Origin: Gordius albopunctatus
Lineage: Eukaryota
Length of the DNA stretch: 64,000 nucleotides
Reading direction: 5' to 3'
Assembly: GCA_964276515.1 (NCBI GenBank)
Contig: OZ193910.1
Span: 3,596,001-3,660,000 of the forward strand
Within the stretch, counting starts at the first letter, position 1. Each line of letters begins with the position of its first letter. This document shows positions 5,250 through 62,770 of this stretch, one piece after another. The notes beneath the pieces are model-generated. The model searched no databases. It was not told the origin of the DNA and saw only the letters and a program-made list of their open reading frames with translations. The position numbers were made by a program, and so were the translations under genes.

Positions 5250-5928
5250 TCTTCTTTATCAGTAATTTGGTCCCACATTGGTGGGGTTTGTTTTGATAAG
5301 TTTCTTCCATCTTGACCGGGTGAGTGCCATGTCTTGACTAATCTTTTTAATTTCCATAACTTTATCGACTTGCTCTTTCCACGTGACATGGGGTCGGTCG
5401 TCCTCTTCTCTCTTCACCTGTACCTCCATGTCCAGTACTTTTCGATTTACGTCATCCGTGTCCCTTCTTAGTATATGCCCATACCACCTTAGCCGATTTT
5501 TGTTAATCATGTCCGCCATAGGTGAATACCCATTTTCGTCATGAGAAAGTCATTCGTCATATGGTCGAGCTTAGTATACCCTAAGCTACACCGTATCATT
5601 CTCATCTCTGTGGCTTGTAATAGCTTTCCTTCCGTAGTGTTTAATGCCCATGTTTCACTTCCATAGAGTAACACGGGTCTTACGATGGATTTGTAAGCTT
5701 TGCTCTTCAGCCATATTGGCATTTTCTTGTCGCACATTACACCGGATATACTTCGCCATTTAAGCCATCTTTTTTAGATCCGGGAATTGACTTCCGTTGC
5801 GAAACCTCCCTCTTGATGTAGCATTGAGCCGAAATAAGTAAACCTGTCTACTTTTGGGTACTTTAGATGGTCATCCAGTGATGGGGTGCCTGTACCGTTC
5901 ATTTCCATGTATAAAGTTTTTCGGTCAC
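5250..5928 (-). mobile_element. RTE-clade LINE, 5'-truncated and frameshifted (family A)
   Basis: RT C-terminal motifs FTYFGS, RPVLLYGSETW, EMRMIR, RLRWYGHILR, and a (GAA)n 3' tail. Near-identical to the copy at 19612-20542. Confidence 0.9.
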
Positions 5929-17057: not shown

Positions 17058-20000
17058 TCAATTAAGAACAGTTTCATCGAATAAGCATTGTTCTAACATA
17101 AGGCCATTCCAAGGTTTTATGGTAATTTTAACTTGGGTCCCCTTTTTGCTTTGGATCTTTTTTTGCAAAGTTCTCTCCACTAACAGCTTCACTTCTTCCA
17201 GCATCGATTTATTAGTGTCGTCCAATAATGCCTATAAACGTAAAAAGAAATATTAAAAAAAGGATAAAATTTTTTGAAATGGTTGACATTTTTCCCTTTA
17301 TTTTTACCTTTAAAATTAAATTAATTTTAAAATATCTATCAATAACAAAAAAAATCTTTAAAAATTTTATGTCCTTATTTTTATCATTATCTTGAATTTT
17401 TCATGTACTAAATGGCAAAATAGGATCAAAGTCCCAAAATCTAACTGCGGCCCAATCTTCAAATACGATTATAATCTCGAACCAGAAACGAATTTCAAAA
17501 AATTAAAAATCTAAAATCGAATCCTAAAAATCTTTAAAAAATCACCTTCAAACCAAAAAAGTAACGCTTCACTCTAAAAAACATTTCCCCGTAGTACTAG
17601 TTTGGCAAAGCACTAGCTAAAGTATAACATTAAACTTCTCGACACCTCAATGTCACAATTTAAAACCAAACGCATCCTTTTTGCAGCTAAATAAAAAGTT
17701 GTTTTACGTTCAAGTTTTCAGCGTCGTAAGCCTGCGCTTCAACCGATAGGATGCGTATAATGACATTTTCCCCTTGGTTCCTAACGATGGAATTGCCGTC
17801 ACTACAGGCTCTAGCCAAGATCCCCAATGCATTTTGCGCGTAAGATTTAACCGGCCCCCTGTGCAGAGAATCGACGCTCTTTTTGGCGACACTAGCTAAT
17901 GAGGAGCCTAGGTGTGGGTTCGTTTCGAATTGGTAATGGATCGAGTTGATGGCTAGCATCTTGACGTCGTGCGATTTGTGAACTATCGCCTAAAATGACA
18001 AAAATGCTTGCTAGAACCTTATATTATAATATGTTTGCCCTGCACACGGACGTAGCTAGGATTTGAACCAGAGGGAAGCAATAGTGATTGAGGGAGAGGG
18101 GCAAAATGATTATTTCTTGAAATTTTAGCCTTATAGAGGGGGGCAATCGCCCGTCCGTGTCTCTCCCTAGCTATGTCCATTGCTATGCAAACGCCGATTA
18201 TCCCTGGAAAAAATTTCTCGCCTATAAATTAATCATGTCTGGTCAAGGTTTGCGCATTAGGGGATAGTAATACTTCCCGATGAAATAAATAATTTTTCGT
18301 TAGTAAATCGTTCAAAATAATTCTTTTTGTTTGAATTTTTGCTGAAATTTAACAAAATTTTTAAATTTAGATAGGGGTATTTGCCCCCCCCCCGGATACG
18401 TCCATCATACTACTCAATTTAAAATCAACAAAAATACTAGTAAAGTTAATATTAAGGCTCAAAATCGTCTCTAAACACCGAAAACTTTATTTAAAATCGG
18501 TGTCACCCCTATTAAAACAGCAAGGAGAAGGTCGATGCGGTTTGGGACTGACATTAAAAAAATTTGATTAAAAACCATCAAAAGAAATCTATTTTTCGCG
18601 TTACTAATTATGGTACCACATAATTATTTATACAATGATGTAAGGATTCAACTAATAAATAAAATTAATTAAATTAAACTTAAAAGGTGATTTTCGGGAA
18701 TCATTTAAACATCGCAAATTTCAGTCGCAAAACTAATTCGACTGGTCCTATTGACACTCCCTTTAAAAATTATTCCATATTATATCGAATAATATTCAAT
18801 AACTTTCATCATAATTAAAATGACAAACATATACAAAGGTCCGCTATAACCAAGGATCGAGTGACATTGATATTAATGAAATAAAGATCGATATAAAAAG
18901 TGGAAAATTATGGAAATAAAGGGAGAGTATTTTATTCTCAAAACGAAAAGTTGTCAAAAAAAGTGTAAAAAATATATTAATATAGCGTACCTTTGTGGAT
19001 AGACTAAGTAATTGGTCAGGAATTTCAACGTTATTGTTGATATAATAAGATGCTAGGTAATTCAGCATTTTCACGGTAGAAATTGCCGCATTGATCTAAT
19101 ATAATAAATTATAAATACACATTCCTCGTCAAAATTTTCATCGCTATTTTTTCAATAATAAGAGGCTATAAGTGGTATGGGCATATATTGAGAGAGACGA
19201 ATGATGTAAATCGAAAGGTACCGGACATGGAGGTACCAGGGAAGAGAGGAAGAGGACGACCCCGTGTCACGTGGAAAGGGCAAGTCGACAAAGTTATGAA
19301 AACTAAGAAGATTAGTCAAGACATGGCACATACCTGGTCAAGATGGAAGAGACTCATCAAAACAAACTCCACGCCTAATTGCTAAATAAATATAAATTAT
19401 ATCGATCCTATTGCACGCATGTTTAGACATTCCTGCTAACGATTCTGGAAGGTATAAAGGCAAAACTTCTTGATCCATGAAAGATTCGAAACGCAAAGCA
19501 ACAACATTTGACGATGACCTTTTAAATCATCCATAAGCGTAGCCAACATTGGAATTACAGGGGGACAATAATGATTATGGGAGGGGCAAGCCATAATCCT
19601 AATAAGGTTTAACTCTTGCGTTAGGACGACAGTTGGAGATTCTAAACCTTTTCGTGTTAATACTGGATTGCATCAAGGCTCTGCTTTAAATCCCTTTTTA
19701 TTTAATATAATTATAGACACGATAACGAAGGACATTCTAAAGCCATCGCCATGGTGTATGCTATATGCCGATGATATAGTACTATGCGAGGAAACAAGGG
19801 AGAAAGTATTCGAAGAAGCCGAAAAGTGGTCAAAGCGCTTAGCTGGATATGGTTTAAAGGTCAACGATAGTAAAACGGTATACATGGAAATGAACGGTAC
19901 AAGCACCCCATCGCTGGATGACCACCTAAAGTACCCAAAAGTAGACAGGTTCACATACCTCGGCTCGATGCTACATCAAGAGGGAGGATGCGCAACGGAA

Positions 20001-23000
20001 GTCAATGTCCGGATCCGAGATGGATGGCTTAAATGGCGAAGTATATCCGGTGTTTTGTGTGACAAGAAAATGCCAATATGGTTGAAGAGCAAAGCTTACA
20101 AATCCATCGTAAGACCGGTGTTACTCTATGGAAGTGAAACATGGGCATTAAACACCACGGAAGGAAAGCTATTACAAGCCACAGAGATGAGAATGATAGG
20201 GTGGAGCTTGGGGTATACTAAGCACGACCATATGACGAATGACCTTCTCATGACAAAAATGGGTATTCAACCTATGGCCGACATGATTAACGAAAATCGG
20301 CTAAGGTGGTATAGGCATATACTAAGGAGGGATACGGATGACGTAAATCGAAAAGTAGTGCACATGGAGGTACCGGGGAAGAGAGGAAGAGGACGACCCC
20401 GTGTCACGTGGAAAGGGCAAGTGGATAAAGTTATGGAAACTAAAGAGATTAGTCAAGACATGGCAGTCACCCGGTCAAGATGGAAGAAACTTATCAAAAC
20501 AAACCGCACCAATGTGGGACCAAATAACTGATAAAGAAGAAGAATTCCAATAAAGGTTAAAGAAATTTGGGATTTAGATGGGGGCAGCCGCCCCTGCCTC
20601 TCTCCCCCTGGCTACGCCAAGGAATCATTCTCATTAGGATCTTTAAAAGGGGTAAAAGAAGCATTAATTCTATTTCTAATCCGATCATAGACTACAATTA
20701 TTTAAAAATTAGATTCATTTAGTGTTGCAACTTTGGTGTGCTGATGTTTAGTCTACTGAAACCAAAGGTGGACAAAACAAAACCCCGCAATTTTCGCAAC
20801 ACTACATCAACATTTAAGAAGATTTTTACCCTCATAATTAATGTTCTTCATAGATATATTTTAGTAGCGGGCTGCCTAGCACTACTCGACCTTACAATCC
20901 CGCTGTACCAAGAACATGACACGATCATCTATGCGGACGCGTCTGACACGCACATCGGCATATCCTGGAATGATGAAAAATTCTCGGTAACCTTCATTCA
21001 AGCGGCCGATGCGATTGGGCTTGACTGGGTTAATACGAACCACATAACAGCCTCAGAAACACTGGCAGCAGTATACGCGTACCTGGTGGCCTTCCACAAC
21101 GGGGCCCGCTACCCGAAAGTGATTACAGACTCCACCACGGCATACTTCGTACTAAGGAAAGGAGGGTCAAACTCCCCTGTGGTGGAAAAGATCATAGCCA
21201 GATTCGTAGCCACATACAACATCTCGCACCTGCTGAAACTGCACTTCAATTTGGGTTGGATCTCGACAACACTAAACCCAGCCGACGAACCATCACGGTG
21301 CTGGATGGACAAAGACCGTAACAACGACCCAGCCAACAACGACTCGTTCGACATACCTAACCTAGACAGCATCGAGGAAGACATCGACATGGAATTTTTG
21401 GAAAGCGAAAATATTAGCATAGAGGAAGGGGAGAACAGAACAAACCCCTGAGACACGTGACCGAGTCTTATATAAACGCACGTCGCACCGATACCACCAT
21501 TCGCTCTATTTTTCCTTCGCTCAATATTATTTTGCTCCCACGTTTATACGCACCTTGCCCCCTTTTACTTTTACTCTGCAATTTACCCTAAAATTTTCGC
21601 TTTTGTAATGATATATATAGTGTAGAGTAGAAACAATAAACGCCCCTGGTAGAACGATAGCGAAACCAGGGGATCTGGGAGAAGGGCCTAACCCTTCTTC
21701 CAGATTAATTAATTTAACACCCTCGACAATTCCCGAAAATATATCTATGAAGAACTACATCAACATTTCAAAATAACAGAAACTTGAAGTTTTACTTTGG
21801 AGTCGGGGAGTAGATAAGAGTTGAGCTGGTCCAGGAGTTGTTTCCAAAGGAGGGGATCAGTTTGGGGGAGACTAGTCAAAAGGGCAGGGCATTTCTTGGC
21901 TATAACGTAGAGGCACACGTCGTAGCCAACGTCATCTTCATCTTTTGATAGGGGAAAACCTAACGAGAAACAAAAATATTAAAAAAAGCTTTCAAACATT
22001 ATGTAAAACATTCATCTTCATCTTCAATTCTTTGCAATAAACGTATCGAAAGTCTTATTTATCAACATTTCCAAAATAAAATCTACTAATGTTCAAATTT
22101 ATTCAAGTCACATATGAAAAATGTGGCAAAGTTTATCAAGTCTGAGCATGTATTTATTGCATAATAAAAGGTTAAATATTGTGTGTGCTCTCCAAAGTAA
22201 CTTACAATAGACATCTAGCAGAACAGAGATGGCATATAGACAAAACTAGGTTTAAATATGATATACACCTATTCATAATCAATTTTGTACGATTCGGATA
22301 TACTAAATTAAAAAACAAGCTATTAAATACTTTTTCCCACACACTTCCAGCAAATAAAAAAAAATCTCAATTTTGTAAAAAGCAAAGCAATATCCATCAA
22401 TTAATTAAACCAAATCCATTATCTCAAGTATAAAAACTGGGCCTAAATGGTCAATAATTGCTCTAAAACATATAAAATCGGTGGCGATTTGTGGAAAAAA
22501 TCACGTACGTAATATGTATTGTGATAAGAGGTGGAGAAATTGAGATTTTGCAAGATGTTGACATAGGGTACCCAAACAACCCATGGCGATGCGTTTATTT
22601 TCATCGTCGAAACAAAGTAAATCAATCCCTTCCAAACTTTCCCCGCTAACTATGGATTGCGTGATGGGAATCAATTTTTCCTGAATAGATTTAGCTAAGG
22701 CATCACCTATATTGCTCGCCTCGGGGATGGCTAATCTTACAGCGTAAAGCGTGGTTTTCCTACACATTTTTGATTAAAATTGTAAAAGTGACATAAGCAG
22801 GTAAATACAAAAAATGGATGAAATTTATTAGATTAATGTTTATCCCAATGCTGGCTACGGGCATGAAAAGTGTACTTTAAATTTACTTGGTTTACTACTC
22901 AACTCCTTGAGTAAATTGAAGGCTTTAATCGATATGTAAGTTATATGATTAATTGAATGGGCGAAAAAAGAAATTTTTCAAAAATTTTAATTCATTTGAG

Positions 23001-32000: not shown

Positions 32001-35000
32001 AAAATGGCGGATCTAATGGTACACATGTTTACCATACGAAACACATGACATTAGCAGTCGATCTATGTGGTAGTGTTGTAGGGACGGATGGGTTTTGCTT
32101 GGTCGGGCTCAGGGTTTAGTCGAAATTTGGAAAAAGGACGAAACCCAAAGGTGGACAAAACAAAACCCAACTGCCATGCAAGCATGTAGCCTACTATGGG
32201 TATTATTATAGAATACACGAAAAAAGCAGTAAAATATGTAGTATGCAGAGTTAAATCCCCGAATGTCACCAGTAAAAGGGAAGGCACAATTTTATCTAGG
32301 TAAGGGATGAAATCGTCTTTAAAGACGCTGGGCAAGTAGAGGAGCATAAGGAGGTAGCCATCTTTGACGGGGGATGGTAGGTTAGGGGTGTGCAAGGTTT
32401 GAATCACGTCCACTAAGATTGAATCCAATCGCGCTATACCCAATTTTTGAACCATCATACTCAAGCCTAAATTGCATGCAGTGAAATAGTGGCCAATAAA
32501 CGCGATATAGATTTGTGAGGAAACATATGACATTCAAAGCTCCAAACAGGATTTTATAGCCTTTTTATATATAGATATTTAAATAATTTATTAAACTTGT
32601 TCTAAATTTTGATGCTAATTAACATTTACTCTTTAAAAGCTCTAAAATTTGGCGTTCCCTTTTCCATGTTTTCAGTTTCACAAGAATCCATCGCATAAAT
32701 CTCTAATTATATTATCCTACATTTACCAATTTCAAAACTCCCCAATTTTCCATTATTAAAATTCGTCGGAAAAAATAAACTTTTTCCAACGCAGCCTCTG
32801 AATTAAGAATATATGTTCACAAAAAATTCATTTCGAACGCAAAACAAAAACTCCATATTAACCTTGGGCAGCGCCTGATCTATCTACGGCAGATGTTTCG
32901 GAAACGAGAGTTTTCGTAAGCCAGGCCACGAGCTGGTCAACCAAACTTTTATCAACGACACCTACCAAATTGCCTAGGGCATGCGATGCCTGACTCCTCA
33001 CTTCTGGCAAGGGGTCTACCAAACAAACTTTCATACGGGGCAACAAAGCTGGAAGATATGGTTTCACATCCTAAAAAGCCGTCATAAAACTAGATATGAC
33101 TAAATATCTAAAAGATTTAAAGTATTTACTATTTCACAAACTAAATACATATCATACATGGGCGTAGCCAGGGGGAGGGGGGCAGGGAGAGAGAGGCGGC
33201 TACCCCCCTCTAAATCCAAAAATTCAATAAAATTTCAAAAAATGATCATTTTGCCCCTCCTTAAATCATCCCCTCTAATCCCAACGCTCGCTACGCCCAT
33301 GCCATCATTAGCTAAAAAAATTTTTGATAAAAATGATATGCTTAGTTGAAGAAGGGATTGAAATGCAAGCTTAGCCGGATTAGTAAAACCTAAAAATTCT
33401 TAGTATCTTCCTAAAATTAGAATTTTGTTCATAAAAATGGTGGGAAAAACAGATAAAAGAGGCCCGATTATACACTAGTTAGAAAGCATGCTAGCCGAGT
33501 CAGTACATAAGCAAGATAAACCTAAAATATTTAAAGTGATTTTCTTCGGGAATTCCTGAAAAATCAGAATTTTGCATATGAATTGTCGCGAAATCAATTA
33601 AAAGTAGTCTTGTTATACATTAGTTTAAAATGCACGCTTAAATCGTCCCATTAAAAAACTCACGCTTTCGCTGGTTAAATCAAACATGTCAGCTAGAACG
33701 TTCAGTGCCATTCTCCTAATTTCGGAAGATCTATCTTGCATGGTCCTTTGAACGACTGGCATTAGCAGGGCTAGACTAGCTGTGTCAATGGCGTGTACGA
33801 ATAAGCGGGTACCTTACATAAACAAGAAAACGTAAAGCATAAGACTCAACAGATTTTAGTTAAAAGGAAAAGCAATTATTTTAGGCCTCAATTTAACATA
33901 AACATGCGATAAGTTCAAATAGTTGGTTACAACAAAACTTTTCCTCTAATGTTATTCATAGATATATTTTAGGGAATTGTCGAGGGTGTTAAAAAATTAT
34001 TGTAGTAAATATAATATTTTTTTAAAGTCAATACTTTAAGCTGGCTTATTAATCGAGCAATTCATTTATCGTCTTCACAATCCGCATATATTAAAGAAAT
34101 GGTTTATTTATATGAAAAATTCTGTTCTCTTGGATATCCAAATCAACTTTTCAATAATATTCTAAAAAAATGTTTTTTAACTGAAAATAAGCAAAAAAAT
34201 ATTAATGATAAAACATTTATACATTTCCCGCATCACCCATCGTTACCATTTACATTTTTAAAAAGCATTAAAAAAATTTAAGAAGTAATGATATTAATAA
34301 CATCATCATCACACAAAAACCTAATGAATCACTCTTAACAATATTACAAAATAACTATGAATCCGATTTACAGACAAATAACGTTATCTATAAAATTACT
34401 TGTAGTGATTGCAACCAGTTTTACATTGGGGAAACAAAAAGAGACTTAAGAGTTAGGCTTAAAGAACACTTGGCAGCTTTATTTCGCCCCAACGGGGTGT
34501 CTACAGGAATATCTAACCACATTTTAAAGGAAAATCATACGGCGAAACTCAAACAATCAGTTCTACTTTTTACAAAATCTTATTTTGAAAGGAAGACGTT
34601 AGAAGAGTCCTTCTTTATTAGAAGACTTAACCCCACTTTAAATGAAGATATGGGAAGAGTACCCCTCTACCCTTGGATACACACTAATTTATCACTACCA
34701 AAGAACATTCTATTTATTTTATATTTTATTTAAATCTATTTTACTTATCTGACGATGTCCTCTATGAGGACGAAATATTATATTTACTACAATAATTTTT
34801 TAACACCTTCGACAATTCCCGAAAATATATCTATGAAGAACATTAATTATGAGGGTAAAAATCTTCTTAAATATTTTCCTCTAATATTCTCAATGTTTAT
34901 CAATCAATTTTTGGTAGCCTGGTATAAGGGTATGGTGATTAAGAATGCAAATTATCTACGGGTATAAATTCCGCTTAAAATCTACAACTTAAAGGGTTAA

Positions 35001-38000
35001 AATCAAAATTACTTAAAATTATTGATTACCTATATTGTCACGGGGGTGGCGGGCAATAAAATTTATCCAAAGATGAAAAAATTTAGATATAGTAATTTTT
35101 TGGCAAAATTCCTTTTTGCGAGGAAAGGGGGAATCAGCACGTTCTTATAAAAAATATGATTATTTGGGGGACGAAACTCATTGCTGGTGCTGTAAAAAGG
35201 GCTAGGTTTTGATTGGTCTACCTATAAACATAAACAAATCAAAGGCATTTTTTGGTCTGGTTATTCTTAGTCGAAATTTGCGAAACCCGACAAGAATCTA
35301 CCGTTAGTCTTAGTAAAACCAAAGGTGGACCAAGCATAACCCAGCCGGTTTTGCGACACTACTCATTGCTACGCCGAAATTGAGAAAAAAAGCGACGTAA
35401 AAGGGGCTGTCAACCCTAATTTTCGGGTTGAACGCGGCAAACCCAGGAGTGCACCCGTTACCGAGTAAAGTTTTGAGGCAAGAAGCTGATTTAGTGTCGG
35501 GATCTTTCATAGCATCTATGAGGATGTCTACACGTTCCCTTATTTCTGGGTTTTGCATGACCGATCCTATGCTACGCAGCGCCAAGGCACCAGAATTCCG
35601 AACTTTATCGTGAGAATTCGACAAGGTGTCTACTAGCTTCGGGACTATGGTGGGCAAACAAGATGACAATTGATCTGGGGCACAATGGGACATCGAACCC
35701 AACATTTCGATAGAAGCTATACAAACGAGCAATTAAGCATGATATTTTTATTTTTCTAATTTTTGAACGCAATATCCTCTTGGACATACGAGTGTCATTA
35801 TTTCCATAGGCGTAGCCGGGGGGGGGTCAGGAAGGGGCAGATCCAAAAAATCTTTAAAATTTAATATAATTTTGGCTAAAATTTCAAAAGAATATCATTT
35901 TGCCCCCCCCTCTCATTCAAATCCTGGCTACGCCCATGATTATTTCTATTAAACGATGTTATTAGTAACATATGAAGCAAGAATTATGAGTTTGATTAAC
36001 AAAGCGTAAAATTATTTACGGTACAGGGATCAACAAAACTAGACCAAATTTTTGAGGCTAAGTTTACCTTAAACCGGCTCACTTTTTCTGCAAAACGATT
36101 GGGCAAACAACATTATTGGCCGAACCAATTGAAATTTATCGCGCCTTATTATTATCATCGAGAAGCTCGATCCGAAGATCGTATTAAATTTTGAAAGGTC
36201 TGACCAAAAGACATTCTCAATGTTATTTTCGTTTAAAAGATTGGACTAATCCGAATTAAATTTCAGAAACTACCAAAAATTCAGTACAATTATTATACCT
36301 TGGATATTTAATTTAGACTTGAAAAAGGCAAAACTCGTTATAGAATTGCTTAATACTCTTCTATGAGCTTAATTTAAGTGAGGATACTCAAAATTGAATT
36401 TGAATAAAAAGGTGAGTGAATTTAAGTGGGATGAACCAGTTTGCGTTCTCCAAGCGTCGTTGGAGAGGGCTTCTGTCAGGATCGGGATCAACAAATTGAT
36501 TCCGTGCGTGGTTAAGCAACTGGTGATGGCTTTAAAAGCATCTTGGGCCGCATCTCGCACGTACCCCAACCCATCCCCGAAACAATTTAGCAGGGTCGGC
36601 ATGAAAGATAGTGCGTACGGTTCCATTTGTTTCCCATAAATTCGCGTCAACGACTCAATAACGAACAAAGCACCTATTATTTTTTTTAAGTATATAGGAA
36701 TATTGATTGGATATTATTAATTACATATCTTGGGAGGGTGAGATAAATAAATTCAAAAAATTATGTGGTGTGTATTGAAATAAAGGGAAATAGCGATATT
36801 TATATTGATTTAAGGGAAAAGTAGCTGAAAACCAATAGAAAGTCATTAATTCTAGTCAGGATAATTGATGCTTAAGGGGTAGTAAAGTCACCTACAATGA
36901 TGTAAATTTGTTATGGTCTTAAGTTGAGGCAGGGTTTGAGGGGGACAGGAAGGGGTACCATGCCCCCCTTTATATATTTTTATAGGCTTCTTTAGCCCCT
37001 CGCTAACCCTTTCGTCGTTTATCACCATATATCAATTAACCTGATTTTAAATATTCTCCCTTTAGATTGAGTAAAATTAATAAATAGTGTCTGGGCAATC
37101 AAAGGATTAATTAGAAACTCAAGATTGCAGAAAATCTTGGTTTACTCTAGAAAATAGTTAAGACGGTGTAGTAAAACTAATTTTTTGTTTTTATTCGTAA
37201 TTATGACTTTTTGTTGTTGTAATTTTATAATTAATGGGTTGCTTCAACTACTAAACACGGACAAGGCAATGTTAAACCTTCATTTCTAACTAATTAGAAG
37301 ATCTTCATTCCTTTTACCTTCTCTGCGTCTACTATCCTTTTTATCAGCCAACGCGGTTTCGAGTCTATCGATGGAACCAAATTTTTTGATTCCAGCCAAG
37401 CCGAAACCTTTAGAGAGTCCGGCCACTCCGTAAGCAGCACCCTTTCGTACCGCAAATTTGGATTTTTCATCGATAGTGGTCGCCCAAAATTTATCGAATT
37501 GAACTTGTACCAAGGCGAAGGGCAGGCTGGGCGTTATTATGACCAAGCAACTCCCAACGGATTCTTGCACCTTAAAAAAAGAATGAAATTTTATTATTTG
37601 TGTGATATTTTAAATTTCTTTTTGGTCATTTTAAAAGAATAAACAATCAAAGTTTATTTCCAAATAATTATGTAATATATAAAATTAATGAGCCGGAATC
37701 GATTTTGGAACGAGCCTTTAATTTTTTGGTGTTAGTTATGAAATTCACGGGCCCAATCAATAAAACATCTATGTGTATAGGTGAAAGTTAATATGGAAAC
37801 TTTGTTATATACTCAACCTTGGGCGTAGCCAGAGGGTGGCAGAGAGGGGCGACTGCCTGCCTCTAAATTATAAAATAACTCAAAATATGATATAATTATG
37901 GCTAAAATTAATAAAAATTATCATTTCATCCTTCCCAGGATCATTATAGCTTCCCTTAAAATCCAATCTTAGCTACGCTCATGTAATTAAGCAATACTAA

Positions 38001-44000: not shown

Positions 44001-47000
44001 TGAGTTCACAGCATATTGACAAGTGTTGTAAAAACAACTGTGTTTTGTTTGGTAGCCCTTTGGAGTTTTTTGGTCTCTTTTTATTAGTTGACCCCTGGGC
44101 TTAGTCGAAATTTGAAAGCCAGACCAGAAGCGACCGTTCTTCTAAGTTGAGCCAAAGACCGGCCTAACAAAGCCTAGCCGTTTTTAGAGCATTAATATAG
44201 GCTGGCTCAGCGCAGTACTCAATAACCGAACCGGACACAGGCATTATCGCTGTCCAGAACTATTATCAATTTTTTAGAAATGATCAAAGGCTAAGAAAAA
44301 TAAACATATTACAAATAAATCCAAAAAATAACTTCTTTTTTTGCAACTAACCCATAATTTTAAAGGCTATTTGAAGCAGTCTAAGACGTGGTAATATCTT
44401 AGGTTTGTAACGATAATTTTTCTCTTGGCCCACAGCGTCCGCTGTCCATATTCCAGGTTCGAGGTATTTGATCAGAGCTTTAACGTAAGCTTCAACCATC
44501 GGCATTATATTGTCATTGTTCCTAAAGCACTCTTTTTCCAAAACTAAGTGCCGCGCGTCGTCCAACATAAAATAGGACAAATCCAATATAGCAGAATGAG
44601 ATCCGGGACAATCCTCTGATTCCTGAAGTTATGTGTAATACAAGATTAATAACTACATCTTGCATGGGCGTAGCCAAGGGGGCAGGGAGGGGCGGCTGCC
44701 CCCTCTAAATCCAAAAGTTCGTTAAAATTTATTAAAATTATGGCTAAAATTTCGATGCCTCTTCCTAAATCATTGTTGCCCCCCCCTCTAATTCCAATGC
44801 TCAGTACGCCCATTCTTAAATTTTTGAAGAGTCCTTTATTGATGACATTTAAGAGTGAGTCATTATGCAATTAAAATAAATAGATGACAATTTAATAGAT
44901 AAGTAAGGTAGTACAGTCAAAACCGTTTAATTGCAAAGCCTTGGGCCTCAAAAAATTGCGATTAAACGATGGAAGAAGAGAAAACATCAAAAGACACATA
45001 GTAAATATTCATTTCTTACGATTCGCAATAAAACGATATTTTATATAATTGTATGGTTGATTTAAGGACTGTAAAATGTTTGTGAATATCCGATATTGTA
45101 TTATTAAGCGATTTGTCAATAAACGATGTTTTTTTAATATTATCGTTTGGAAAAAACAAAACTCGGGCCTTCGGCCCTCGTGGGAAGGGGGAGGGGGGAA
45201 GGGGAGGAGGGGAAGTGGGGAGGGAGGTGCAGGAGGGTAGGGGGAACGACTCATCTATACTCCGTATAAAATTAGCATATTTGCTATGCAATTTATGGGC
45301 GAGAAAGGTAAGAAGGGGCGAAAATGTCTATAGTGGGGTATTAAATGCAAAATGATTAGTTAATTATTAATACAAATTTTCCATTTAATTAAAAAATTTT
45401 TTGTCCTCTCCGGGATTTAAACCCACATCAGTAGAGGCATAAGCTTTTCTAGGGGAACAGGGACCCATATGAATGAAGCATAGGCCCTTGTAGGGGAGGG
45501 CTTGGGGTCATTATCAATGTTAAGCTAATCAGAAACAAAAAAAAATTTTCGAATCACAATTTCGTTAATGGTCATTTTTTTCATCGGTCAGTAGCCAGCG
45601 GACGGTCAAAAAGTCATATTATCAATGGTATTAACAAGAATAAAATTTAAATTTAATTAAAAAAATAAAAATTTTGCCCTCTCCGGGATTCGAACCAGCA
45701 AGTCAGAACGTGTTGTAGTGGTGGAGTTTAGGATTACCATGAATCGGCATACCCTCGGTATATGCAGTATCGATTAATTTTGGGGTTTACTCTACCGCGC
45801 CTATATTATAAAGGAGAGAGAGGGAGTGGAAGGTTAGGCTTTCTGATTGGTTGTTTTTTATAAATTATCAAGGTCACCAACACCACAACATAACCTATTT
45901 TTGGGTTGTGGATAAGAACTCGCGGATGATTATCTGCCGTCATCAAGTTAATAAATAAATTAAATAAATAAACATAGCAATTAATAAATAAATAAAGTAT
46001 AATCATATTAGATTAATCCTATAAATAATTATAGGATTGCATATAGGCATATAATACATGTCGGGTGGGAAGTTTTATCTCGCTGGCAGCATGTGCGGTG
46101 ATAAAATAATAACAACATACATGACATAGCAATTAAAGGCAGTTGCTGCTATAACCCAGTGGCGTAAATAAAGGGGGAGGGAAAAATAGTTAATAAGGTT
46201 TAAATGTATATATCGCTCGCATTCAGCAAATAAGCTTGGCTTGAGAGTATGTTTTTGGGGGACATTAATTAGGGTTAATAAATAACCTATCAAAATTAAT
46301 TTAGCGATAACAAATATTATTTTTTTAATTTGAAAAGATGCCTAACATTGAGATATATGTATTTATTAAATTACTATTAAATAAAAAATTTTATGATATT
46401 TCTAGCTGTCTCGACATTTTCATCTTCGAAATTGAGGGAGTCAGTTTGTGAAGCATAATACTTCTCTAAATCTTTAACAAATTTTGGGTGAACCGTAAAT
46501 TTATTGTCTAAAAACATTTTAGTGACCCAAGCAATTGTAGTAGATGCTTCGTAATCTTTGCAACTCTGAGGGGGGGAGGAGGAAAGTCGACGTTTCAGAT
46601 CATTACAACGGTCTATAAATACATACGAGTCAAAAAAACGAGAATTGGCCAATGCTCATTTTTTTCCATTGGTCAGTACCCAGAGATGGTCTATAAATAC
46701 ATACGAGTCAAAAAAAAACAAAAAAAATTTCGATTCACATTTTGGCCAATGGTCATTTTTTTCCATTGGTCAGTACCAACAGATACTCTATAAAAAACGG
46801 GAAAATTTTTTTTGATGCTCACTTTGGCCAATGGTCAATTTTTCCATTGGTCAGCAGCCAGCGGACGGCCAAAAAGTCATATTATAAATGGTATTAAGAG
46901 GAACAATCATAAAAGTCAAAAAAAAAACAGAAAAAAAAAATTTCGATTCACAATTTAGCCAATGGTCATTTTTTCAATTGGTCAGTAACCTGCGGACGGT

Positions 47001-50000
47001 CAAAAAGTCATATTATCAATGGTAGTAACGAGAACAATATATCAATTTAATTTAAAAAAAAATAAAAATTTTTGTGCTCTCCGGGATTCGAACCCACATT
47101 AATAGAGGCATAAGCTTTTGTAGGGGCACAGGGACCCATATCAGTAGAGGCATAGGGTAATTATCAATGTCAAACTATTCAAAAACAAAAATTAAAAATT
47201 TCGATTTATTTAGCCAGTGGTCATTTTTTTTTCACTGGTCAGTAGCCTGCGGACGGTCAAAAAGTCATATTATCAATGGTATTATCAAGAACAAAATATT
47301 AATTTAATTTTAAAAAAAAATAAAAAAATTTTGTCCTCTCCGGGTCTCGAACCCGCAACCTCCAGGTCGGGAGGCTGGTGTAAATAACTTGGTGGACGAC
47401 GGACGGACGACGGACAACCAAAAACGAGCCCATAAATTGCATAGCAATTAAAATGGTGGTTAACTTTGCGATTAAAAGATTTCGCGATAATCCGATTTGC
47501 GATTAAGAATTTTCGACTGTATATTCGATGTTTTTGTCGTGAAAGTTGTTTTCGTATATAATGCGTTTGTTAAATTATTTTCGCAATATTTTGCAATCAA
47601 TAAAAATAGTTAAATTTTAATGTAAATGAAATTAAAGTATACGCCATTTTCATATAAGGATATGATAAAGTACCAAATGGTCGTTTAATAGCTAACACTT
47701 TAGGTAATCGAAAAACATTAAAAATATGTGAAAGGTATTAAAAAACAAAAAAATATTTAATTACGAAATGTCTGCCATGATATTAGTCTAAGATCTGTAA
47801 ATAACAGGTTATACAAAATAAAACTCTAAATTACTTTGTAAATTATTGCATTAATTTGGCCAACCAAGCTTGACAGTGTTGAGAAATCATCGTTGGGAGA
47901 TAATGTAAAATCTGACAGGCCAGAGCCATCTGAATTCGCGCTATTCACGGCAATAACAACAGTTGCCATCTTACAACCTATGTATAATCAACAAAATCTT
48001 TGTTTAAATATATGATAATTCCAATTTCGCCTAATTTTATGGACTTATTATATAATGAAAAAAAATCGTTGATTTAATTATATATTTAATTCCATCTATT
48101 ATATCGTATCAAGCCATTTAACGGATGACTTTGTCATTCATAAATCATAATCCATAGCCAAGGTGAGTGTTACTCTGCGGACGTGAGAAGTGGGCATTAA
48201 ACAGCACGGAAGGAAAGCTATTACAATCCACGGAGAGGAGAATGATAGGGTGGAGCTTGGGGTATACTAAGCTCGACCACATGACGAATGACTTTCTCGT
48301 GACAAAAATGGGTATTCAACCTATGGCCGACATGATTAACGAAAATCGGCTAAGGTGATATGAGGGGCATATACTAAGAAGGGACCCGGATGACGTAAAT
48401 TGAAAAGTGCTAGACATGGAGGTACCGGGGAAGAGAGGAAGAGGACGACCCCCTCGTGTCACGTGGAAAGGGCAATTTGTAAGGAGATTAAATATGAAAG
48501 CCAGAACTATCGCGTCCCATTTCCCTCCTCTTCTACCTACGTTATCAATCCAACCCCACCGATTTTATACAATGACATTCATATTAATGGATTATGTATA
48601 TTATATTAATCAAGGCGTAGTACTTACCCGATTAAGATGGAAAATACTCGTAAAGAAAGAAACGGGAAGATATTTTAGAAGAAATAATAATTATTATTTT
48701 TTTTAATTCTTATTAAGTAAATACACTATTTTGGAACACAAATTATCGAAGGTGTATAAAATTTATGAAACTCATATTTAATCGACATTACCCAAGGAGA
48801 AATGCTTTTTAGACGCGATTAGTTGGCCCATTTGGTACAACAGAGGTTTGACGTATTTAGAAGTTAATGGATTTGTCTGTAGATGCCACACGAAACACGA
48901 TGTTAAATCGTCGAAGAAGCGAGCTAATTGTTGAAACTCACAAGACTGCTGCGCGGTAAATATAGACGCGATGAGGTGCGCTTTGAACTTGAATTCTTCC
49001 AAATCCTAAATTAATATTTGCAATTATAAAATATTTGCAATTTTAGATTGAAAGAACAACTATTTTCACATGTGCAAAACGCGTATATTACTAAAAATAC
49101 ATAAAAACTTGAAGCTCTTGATTACGTGAATTATTATGAGAAATATTAAATAGCATTTATTACGAGATAATAAGGTAAATGCAATCATAAAAAATGGGAA
49201 TTTAACTTATATACTTATATGGGAAAACAATGATAATTCACACATAAGAAATGTCTTTAAAAATTAATTGCTTATAGCATTTCAAACAAACAATAAAAAC
49301 AAATCTAAGCGTGCCTCTTAAAATGCAATTTTGAAGCTAAGCAAGGAAAAATAGCAAATATTGTTAAGAAAGACTAGAGGTGTGCATGGATCATATTTTT
49401 TTGATCCGATCCGATCCGAGGGGTTTTTGAAAAATTTCATATCCATCCGATCCGTCATGTCGGATCGGATTGATCCGTGCACACCTCTAGTGTGTATTAG
49501 AGGTGTGCATGGATCATATTTTTTTGATCCGATCCGATCCGAGGGCTTTTTGAAAAATTTCATATCCATCCGATCCGATCCGAGTTTTTTAAAATCTAAA
49601 TCCGATCCGAGTTTTGAAGGTCGGATCGGATTGATCCGTGCACACCTCTAAGAAAGACATAGCTCAAGAAGCGCGTCACTTCGTTTGGGAAGATTTATTG
49701 TATCGACTCGAGGGCGATTAGCGAGACGCAAAATTTTCAAACTATAATAAACTAATAAAACTATCAAATTCGCCAATAGCTGTTTTCACGAACCAAAACA
49801 AATAGCGCGTATGAAATTGAATCGCGCATTACAGCCTAAAACGATGTTTTAATTAGAAAAAAACATTTGAGTCGCCAAATGCTTATTCTAATATAATTTT
49901 GAGATGATTTTTACAACTTTTTTTTTTATAAATTATGAAACGGTCTCTTAACAAACAAAATAATTTAATACGCAAAATTACAATAAATTTCTACTATCTA

Positions 50001-62581: not shown

Positions 62582-62770
62582 ACAATTTGACGTCCATCAA
62601 CTTGTCCTTGAATAATTTGCTTAAAACGATACCGACCCCGTCTCTAGGATTTGGTGACCCGTTGTATTTGTATCCTTCTCTTAGCCCCGAGCTTTGGTTC
62701 CATTCCACTTCGTCTTCTGTAGACAGGCGATGTGTACCTTTCTTGTTTTTGCATTTGTGCAACCTCTATG
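62582..62770 (-). mobile_element. RTE LINE AP-endonuclease N-terminal fragment
   Basis: GYKYNGSPNPRDGVGIVLSKLFKDKLMDVK matches the RTE APE pattern (GYK..Y.G....NGVGI......K..V). Confidence 0.7.

Follow-up and report, generated by a model that had tools for sequence, protein, structure and literature searches.

A young Penelope-framed insertion in a horsehair worm carries the RNase H end of an unplaced RT-RNase H family

VIPER retrotransposons have the gene order gag-YR-RT/RH, with the tyrosine recombinase (YR) ahead of the RT and RNase H (RH). HEART elements were reportedly described by Gong and Han in 2018. How they are mobilized is called unresolved in the accessible portion of PMC12440569. 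According to the available text of PMC6681497, the VIPER RH itself groups with hepadnaviruses, and poor resolution in this part of the tree was already known. Truncated copies of Penelope-like elements typically show an inverted-tail structure (PMC8557442, in the part available). In vitro, a Penelope-like protein cut and extended both strands, and its RT initiated at two sites flanking the tail, again on both strands (PMC11167929, partial text). In the rotifer Adineta vaga, the Pen3a/NRPS case shows that Penelope mobilized unrelated DNA in trans, between pLTRs and with a target-site duplication (PMC3846280, excerpted).

We analyzed a 64,000-nt stretch of Gordius albopunctatus DNA (assembly GCA_964276515.1, contig OZ193910.1, positions 3,596,001 to 3,660,000), hereafter the window. 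The insert of interest lies at 20816-21753, enclosed by a perfect 15-bp direct repeat, and runs from target-site duplication (TSD) through inverted tail, cargo of about 850 nt, and direct tail to the second TSD. Its frame, and the Penelope-like element that served as reference, are as follows:

20801..20815, unstranded: left copy of the 15-bp TSD, an exact repeat of 21754-21768, at the insert boundary
20809..20862, minus strand: inverted Penelope-like tail, 53/54 identical to the reverse complement of 34822-34875, its first 7 nt within the TSD
21713..21755, plus strand: direct Penelope-like 3' end, 42/43 identical to 34799-34841, its last 2 nt within the TSD
21754..21768, unstranded: right copy of the 15-bp TSD, 15/15 exact, at the insert boundary
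33947..34875, plus strand: reference Penelope-like element, 5'-truncated, recognized by Pfam GIY-YIG and sequence reading
34272-34733, plus strand: GIY-YIG frame of that element (Pfam 27.3 bits, above cut-off)
about 34750-34775, plus strand: hammerhead-like core of that element, in which only stem II folds

Both tails were found by searching the window against itself, and both ends of the GC-rich stretch proved to belong to another element. The reference element has its 3' end repeated in inverted orientation at its 5' end and carries its own ~12-bp TSD; the RNase H insert has the same layout of inverted tail, body, tail, and TSD. Moreover, the sense strand of the cargo is co-linear with the direct tail. 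Because the TSD is perfect and the tails are 98% identical to the Penelope-like copy, the insertion is young, and it is Penelope-framed. The TSD and the two tails explain how the RNase H piece arrived, and we consider it very probable that a Penelope-like element mobilized it in trans. An earlier sequence-only reading had also called the insertion young, which held up, although it had overlooked the tails and the TSD. Separately, according to the available part of the paper on the Gordionus montsenyensis genome, automatic annotation found Penelope elements to be lacking there; given the element at 33947-34875, nematomorph Penelope elements may be overlooked.

The insert sits about 30 nt inside a likely intron, antisense to the gene:

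17990..21795, minus strand: likely intron of a GCN1-like host gene, with splice-like ends read from the sequence

The upstream exon at 35313-35732 was identified as GCN1 (E 1e-11), and the exon candidate at 17690-17989 had no match in the search; both exons flanking the insert likely belong to one GCN1-like gene. As an aside, PDB 8i9x chain LR (2,898 aa, named "Ribosomal protein L19") beat GCN1 itself as a match to the GCN1-like exon and is probably a mislabelled sequence. An RT at 19575-20531 was considered as partner of the RNase H and rejected: it has non-LTR-type motifs (Pfam RVT_1) and lies outside the TSD, so it is unrelated to the insert. This RT and the piece at 19190-19372 are two non-LTR retrotransposon 3' fragments, 88% alike over 183 nt, which we take to be RTE-like by their motifs. 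Both share the likely GCN1 intron with the insert, and related pieces occur near 5250-5860 and 48404-48706. Elsewhere in the window, an LTR-type element on the minus strand (about 60454-62600) has direct repeats 1,947 nt apart and an aspartyl-protease frame; it has no RT between the repeats and is likely internally deleted. Two abundant families of short dispersed repeats were also seen, a GC-rich one with GGGGGCAGCCGCCCC and another with AAACCAAAGGTGGAC (example sites 20564-20620, 20748-20805, 44667-44739, and 35304-35362).

The coding part of the cargo consists of:

20864..21451, plus strand: 5'-truncated pol ORF with thumb/connection end, RNase H, acidic tail, and stop, based on translation, homologs, model, fold search, and trees
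about 20918-21304, plus strand: RNase H part of the ORF, with catalytic D25, E65, D89, and D141
21299-21448, plus strand: acidic tail of the ORF

Translation gives 195 open codons and a stop, and of 20,000 composition shuffles, 2 left the frame free of stops. The frame is open upstream as far as 20723; since the stretch before 20864 consists of Penelope tail and flank, 20864 is the correct ORF start. All the motifs quoted in the sequence-only reading are there, namely YADAS (D25), ASETLAA (E65), TDS (D89), KGGS, and LNPADEPSR (D141), and the four acidic residues fall on conserved alignment columns, leaving the D-E-D-D set intact. The acidic tail it had noted contains 16 D/E per 50 residues. 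The GC excess it had claimed over the host is likewise real (0.50, GC3 0.62, vs. 0.334 window-wide), although the contrast is mainly with introns, as GCN1-like frames (n = 10) reach 0.41-0.47 and LTR-element frames 0.51-0.54.

Its identification of an RNase H agrees with structure prediction. An AlphaFold model of the ORF, built on a 19-row alignment, had a mean pLDDT of 81, with 88-97 per block across residues 21-140, about 95 in the core, and a disordered tail. Searched with Foldseek against the PDB, the model matched RNase H domains (best E 5e-4); against BFVD, a virus-only library, the best match was an unnamed 634-aa protein (E 8e-7, 33% identity), followed by HBV P. Sequence searches with the ORF were less productive: Pfam gave no match at E ≤ 10, the hepadnaviral polymerase profile PF00336 included, a PDB sequence search gave one chance match (E 0.53), and a word-index search gave 0 of 119 candidates. 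The ORF encodes a retroelement-type RNase H with intact catalytic residues.

The nearest relatives are from another horsehair worm. A phmmer search of 1.84 billion representatives with the window protein returned 12 matches at E ≤ 0.001, and the best five of these were Gordionus proteins (XP_065317776.1, XP_065315139.1, XP_065315196.1, CAK9300581.1, and CAK9296139.1; E 3e-19 to 3e-5), with 31-38% identity to the window protein. These relatives occur in multiple copies and on chromosomes (contigs of 32-94 Mb). Two of the five have RVT_1 upstream of the RNase H, and a separate search supplied a third RT-bearing member. The window and Gordionus RH form one clade in the RH tree (100/98), and the acidic tail is common to five of the six Gordionus relatives examined. 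In the window protein and its relatives alike, the RH ends in the acidic tail and a stop, with no methyltransferase (MT) following. The window cargo belongs to a Gordionus RT-RH family that fell outside the MT-bearing DIRS in the trees.

The family RT carries YLDD and LPMG, and its DFS-x-VS-R/K and PMG-x-x-FSP motifs resemble hepadnaviral ones. No terminal protein (TP) was recognized in the 63-103 residues upstream of the RT in the family members P0002 and P0017: the best match to hepadnaviral N-termini had Prob 0.85% and E 0.065, and PF00242 found nothing in the N-terminal residues available. The short likeness to an avihepadnaviral TP was dropped as evidence at that E-value. In the ESM Atlas, the two best-ranked feature clusters for P0002 consisted mainly of Euglenozoa entries (0.96), and hepadnaviral Protein P came at rank 20 (0.93); in our view, the Euglenozoa clusters would fit VIPER/TATE. 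A structure model of P0002 was left out owing to its low confidence (pLDDT 48). Searches of viral contigs with the family alignment and with P0025, an unnamed RT-RNase H described below, confirmed no related locus. We found no published description of the family in the literature listings and abstract openings searched. "Gordionus" and "Nematomorpha" are absent from Data Set S4 of PMC12691608, a study that, by its available text, screened 5,500 animal genomes.

The case for a hepadnaviral affinity had been built on motifs, with YADA, ETLAA, and LNPADEPSR read as HBV-like. This argument did not survive a wider comparison. The pattern W-x5-NPADxPSR was found at no fewer than 120 metagenome loci (at least 120), and 101 of the 120 among the matches listed lay in an ORF of at least 100 aa. 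From these 101 we chose 33, of which 26 had neighboring ORFs of at least 220 aa (64 ORFs). Among the matches listed, nine of the 26 chosen loci encoded a Phage_integrase, six of them above the Pfam cut-off; other NPADxPSR loci are presumably BEL-like or Ngaro-like, going by their motifs. PF00336 gave weak, sub-threshold matches in 14 of 30 locus ORFs, four of them YR-linked. Judged by this distribution, NPADxPSR is not hepadnavirus-specific, as it also occurs in many YR-bearing elements and in BEL-like ones, and because it is so widely shared it should not be used for calling hepadnavirus relatives.

Profile scores, which vary with group size and rate, likewise ran counter to the claimed hepadnaviral likeness of the RNase H. 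The window RH scored 57.2 bits against Ngaro-like (n = 7) and 56.2 against YR and YR-like profiles (n = 18), compared with 33.5 for HEART-like (n = 2), 19.8 for DIRS (n = 9), and 18.0 for hepadnaviral ones (n = 13). The window RH is also 131 aa long with a KGGS helix, vs. 103-105 aa and no KGGS helix in the 13 hepadnaviruses. The family RT scored highest to DIRS (121-140), then HEART-like (89-109), Gypsy/caulimovirus (36-66), hepadnaviral (25-51), and the YR set (31-44).

Trees were built in IQ-TREE under LG+C20 PMSF. References comprised 8 of 16 fetched hepadnaviruses (7 in the 37-row RT tree), DIRS-like proteins (most of them MT-bearing), YR loci, one VIPER-like locus, Gypsy/caulimovirus outgroups, and the unnamed P0025, P0030, and L076; near-duplicate and poorly aligned rows were removed (25 of 71 RT rows for the 46-row RT tree). 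Patterns for PnNV and nackednavirus RTs gave 6 chance matches and 0 matches, respectively, so both groups are absent from the trees, which contain no published HEART sequence either; P0025 and P0030 serve as HEART stand-ins, and these two and L076 were judged HEART-like by eye against the PMC12691608 supplement.

The placement of the family shifted with gene and taxon set. In the 46-row RT tree, it grouped with hepadnaviruses, P0025, and P0030 (93/81), with DIRS separate (98/96), and a sister relationship to DIRS was not rejected (AU 0.18). With long branches dropped (37 rows), no placement was supported. Without hepadnaviruses (30 rows), the sister group was P0025 plus P0030 in 172 of 500 trees and a YR/VIPER/L076 group in another 172 of 500. 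In the 49-row RH tree, the family was separated from the seven DIRS rows that bear an MT (96/91) and shared an unresolved cluster with rows of Ngaro-like, VIPER-like, YR, BEL-like, and hepadnaviral type. In the 45-row RT+RH tree, it was a lone deep branch, outside both the hepadnavirus, P0025, and P0030 group (96/95) and DIRS (98/88). The 500 bootstrap trees for RT+RH placed it on the hepadnaviral side 270 times, with the YR group 188 times, and as sister to DIRS never; AU values were 0.46 for the hepadnaviral side, 0.19 for hepadnaviruses only, and 0.069 for DIRS, so that no placement was rejected.

The sequence-only reading had kept the family apart from canonical MT-bearing DIRS, and every tree agreed (98/96, 96/91, 98/88, and 96/97). 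Its proposed grouping with HEART or hepadnaviruses fared less well: it appeared in the RT tree and in the larger share of RT+RH bootstrap trees, but was lost in other taxon sets and countered by the 96/95 exclusion. On these alignments, the family is best regarded as a deep, unplaced RT-RNase H lineage whose HEART membership is neither shown nor excluded.

Several of the sequences compared are of interest in their own right. P0025 (725 aa, from ENA/Logan) occurs on contigs of at most 3,760 bp, and Pfam recognizes nothing in its long N-terminal region. Together with P0030, it resembles published HEART RTs by eye, and the two are possible undescribed HEART/PnNV-side relatives; a search for more HEART-like proteins starting from P0025 recovered it alone among 7,993 candidates. 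L076 (488-2857) is a 790-aa RT-RNase H ORF whose N-terminal half is acidic and which is overlapped by an ORF upstream; its 3,007-bp contig has no ORF of YR size, and L076 was unplaced in the trees. At L079 (2-811), a DIRS-like RT-RH-MT ORF is followed directly by an ORF with an ALOG domain, a domain known from DIRS recombinases.

Downstream of the pol stop, the cargo continues with a non-coding part:

21452..21712, plus strand: pyrimidine-rich 3' non-coding region of the cargo, which was probably a terminal repeat in the parent element
21469-21476, plus strand: TATATAAA, TATA-like, 17 nt past the pol stop
21635-21640, plus strand: AATAAA, a poly(A)-like signal by motif
21643..21705, plus strand: two adjacent hairpins with 8-bp and 14-bp stems, directly before the Penelope junction

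The hairpins folded at -38.6 kcal/mol (z -7.3), and none of 200 dinucleotide shuffles was equally stable; an Rfam search gave 8 matches in the window, none inside the insert and none at the hairpins. A strict TATA+Inr pattern was unmatched in this region, so a promoter is only suggested, and we dropped it as evidence. The other frames of the region all close ahead of the Penelope junction. No YR frame opens within 414 nt past the RH motif of the window cargo, compared with a YR frame opening at -369 to +53 nt from the RH motif in eight of nine YR loci. The best reading of this part of the cargo is the end of a retrotransposon that has pol as its last gene and would be either a YR element with the YR upstream or a YR-less HEART-like element.

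We put at about an even chance the explanation that the insert is the RNase H end of a deep RT-RNase H family, copied in trans by Penelope, from a divergent YR element of the order DIRS. In this scenario, the GIY-YIG endonuclease would cut both strands of an AT-rich site about 15 nt apart, and the Penelope RT would prime at either end on the tail of its own RNA, leaving one direct and one inverted tail. Between the tails, it would copy about 850 nt of sense RNA from the RT-RNase H element, reached either by a template switch or through a read-through transcript with a Penelope tail at its end. Copying would stop just upstream of the RNase H, giving a 5'-truncated passenger. Because the insert lacks an RT, it has no autonomous mobility, and it is the one cargo copy known.

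The evidence on the parent itself, for which a divergent tyrosine-recombinase retrotransposon with RT/RNase H as its last gene is the likeliest reading at about an even chance, points both ways. The RH scores for YR and Ngaro-like profiles, the top RT scores for DIRS, and the mainly Euglenozoa feature clusters favor it, and the VIPER order, with YR upstream, would fit. Against it stand the missing downstream YR in the 414 nt of window cargo, the 93/81 RT grouping, the bootstrap count of 270 vs. 188, and the Foldseek matches to the 634-aa protein and HBV P, drawn from a library of viral entries only.

These same observations lend some weight to a less probable version, in which Penelope copied a recombinase-less HEART-like lineage next to Blubervirales. 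The RT tree, the AU value for the hepadnaviral side, the hepadnavirus-like RT motifs, and the TATA-like and poly(A)-like signals following pol with neither YR nor MT would all suit such a parent. However, the grouping disappeared with the long branches and was tied once hepadnaviruses were removed, the RT+RH tree put the family outside hepadnaviruses, P0025, and P0030, and RH scores favored YR elements. The trees, moreover, held stand-ins in place of true HEART, nackednavirus, or PnNV sequences, and Ixodes HEART RTs differ by eye from the family's YLDD and LPMG. A bolder form, which we regard as a long shot, would have a horsehair-worm lineage at the hepadnavirus base, with neither recombinase nor integrase, borrowing the Penelope RT and endonuclease; if true, this would give a mechanism for HEART-type mobility.

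It is improbable that the Penelope tails are older and that the RNase H piece entered between them later, by its own integration or by repair. Penelope copies do make inverted-tail structures alone, as at 33947-34875 and in the available part of PMC8557442, and each junction consists of a short stretch that is AT-rich or microhomologous. Yet the cargo is not flanked by a second TSD, its 5' truncation coincides with the edge of the inverted tail, and it matches the direct tail in polarity.

An endogenized piece of a nackednavirus or proto-nackednavirus genome, running from the end of P across the pregenome promoter, is largely refuted. The best BFVD match has 634 aa, a size that we assume would fit a nackednavirus P. 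A TATA-like box right after the pol stop also recalls the circular-genome layout (PMC12691608, in part). According to the accessible text of PMC5604429 and PMC12691608, however, a bluberviral fragment of this kind should carry DR1/DR2, epsilon, and a core ORF. Exact direct repeats in the cargo reach 9 nt at most, which is chance level (shuffle mean 8.9), vs. annotated DRs of 12-14 nt (PMC12691608, available portion). The 100 nt after the putative start, itself only suggested near 21499, formed no epsilon-like fold (-1.6 kcal/mol), and no core-like ORF follows the RNase H in the cargo. The longer RH with its KGGS helix, the chromosomal, multi-copy relatives, and the lack of a significant TP match in the available N-termini also argue against a virus. 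Comparably far-fetched is a domesticated host exon kept open by selection, since the intact catalytic residues and the splice-acceptor-like ttttag at 20858-20863, ahead of the frame, are set against a frame antisense in the likely GCN1 intron and an insertion young enough to explain the intact frame.

The locus joins a lineage that is unplaced within a debated region of the tree to a probable Penelope capture, as a single truncated copy with no supported hepadnavirus link. Sampling is sparse in the part of the retroelement tree that lies among YR retrotransposons, HEART, and hepadnaviruses. Because the Gordionus family is multi-copy and intact in a chromosome-level animal assembly, the question of the parent is directly testable. 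The insert is also a clean natural case of Penelope machinery likely copying the RNA of another retroelement, with tails of about 45 nt.

Among known systems, hepadnaviruses, nackednaviruses, and proto-nackednaviruses share with the window an RNase H of the class with NPADxPSR and supply the best Foldseek matches in the virus-only library; the window RH differs in its greater length and 18-bit score, and the fragment in lacking DR1/DR2, epsilon, and a core ORF. HEART elements resemble the family as invertebrate genomic RT-RH elements near the hepadnavirus base in some trees, and by a PF/KF-x-L segment after RT motif 2 (by eye, PMC12691608 supplement, in part). The family has YLDD and LPMG, whereas rows for Ixodes HEART in the same partial supplement show, by eye, [YH]xDN and LPFG(I/L)RP. 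Elements of the order DIRS and other YR elements share the highest RT scores and the nearest RH, that of YR-linked and Ngaro-like elements, with NPADxPSR and a KG-x-S helix in common with the window RH. Unlike the MT-bearing DIRS, the family lies outside their clade in all trees and has neither an MT nor a YR after the RH; the conserved acidic tail also sets it apart from DIRS/YR elements. As for the mode of insertion, the Adineta vaga Pen3a/NRPS case (PMC3846280, excerpted) likewise has unrelated cargo between direct and inverted Penelope ends, a TSD, and no internal Penelope sequence. The insert differs in having tails of 43-54 nt rather than full pLTRs, and in carrying the 3' end of another retroelement rather than a host gene.
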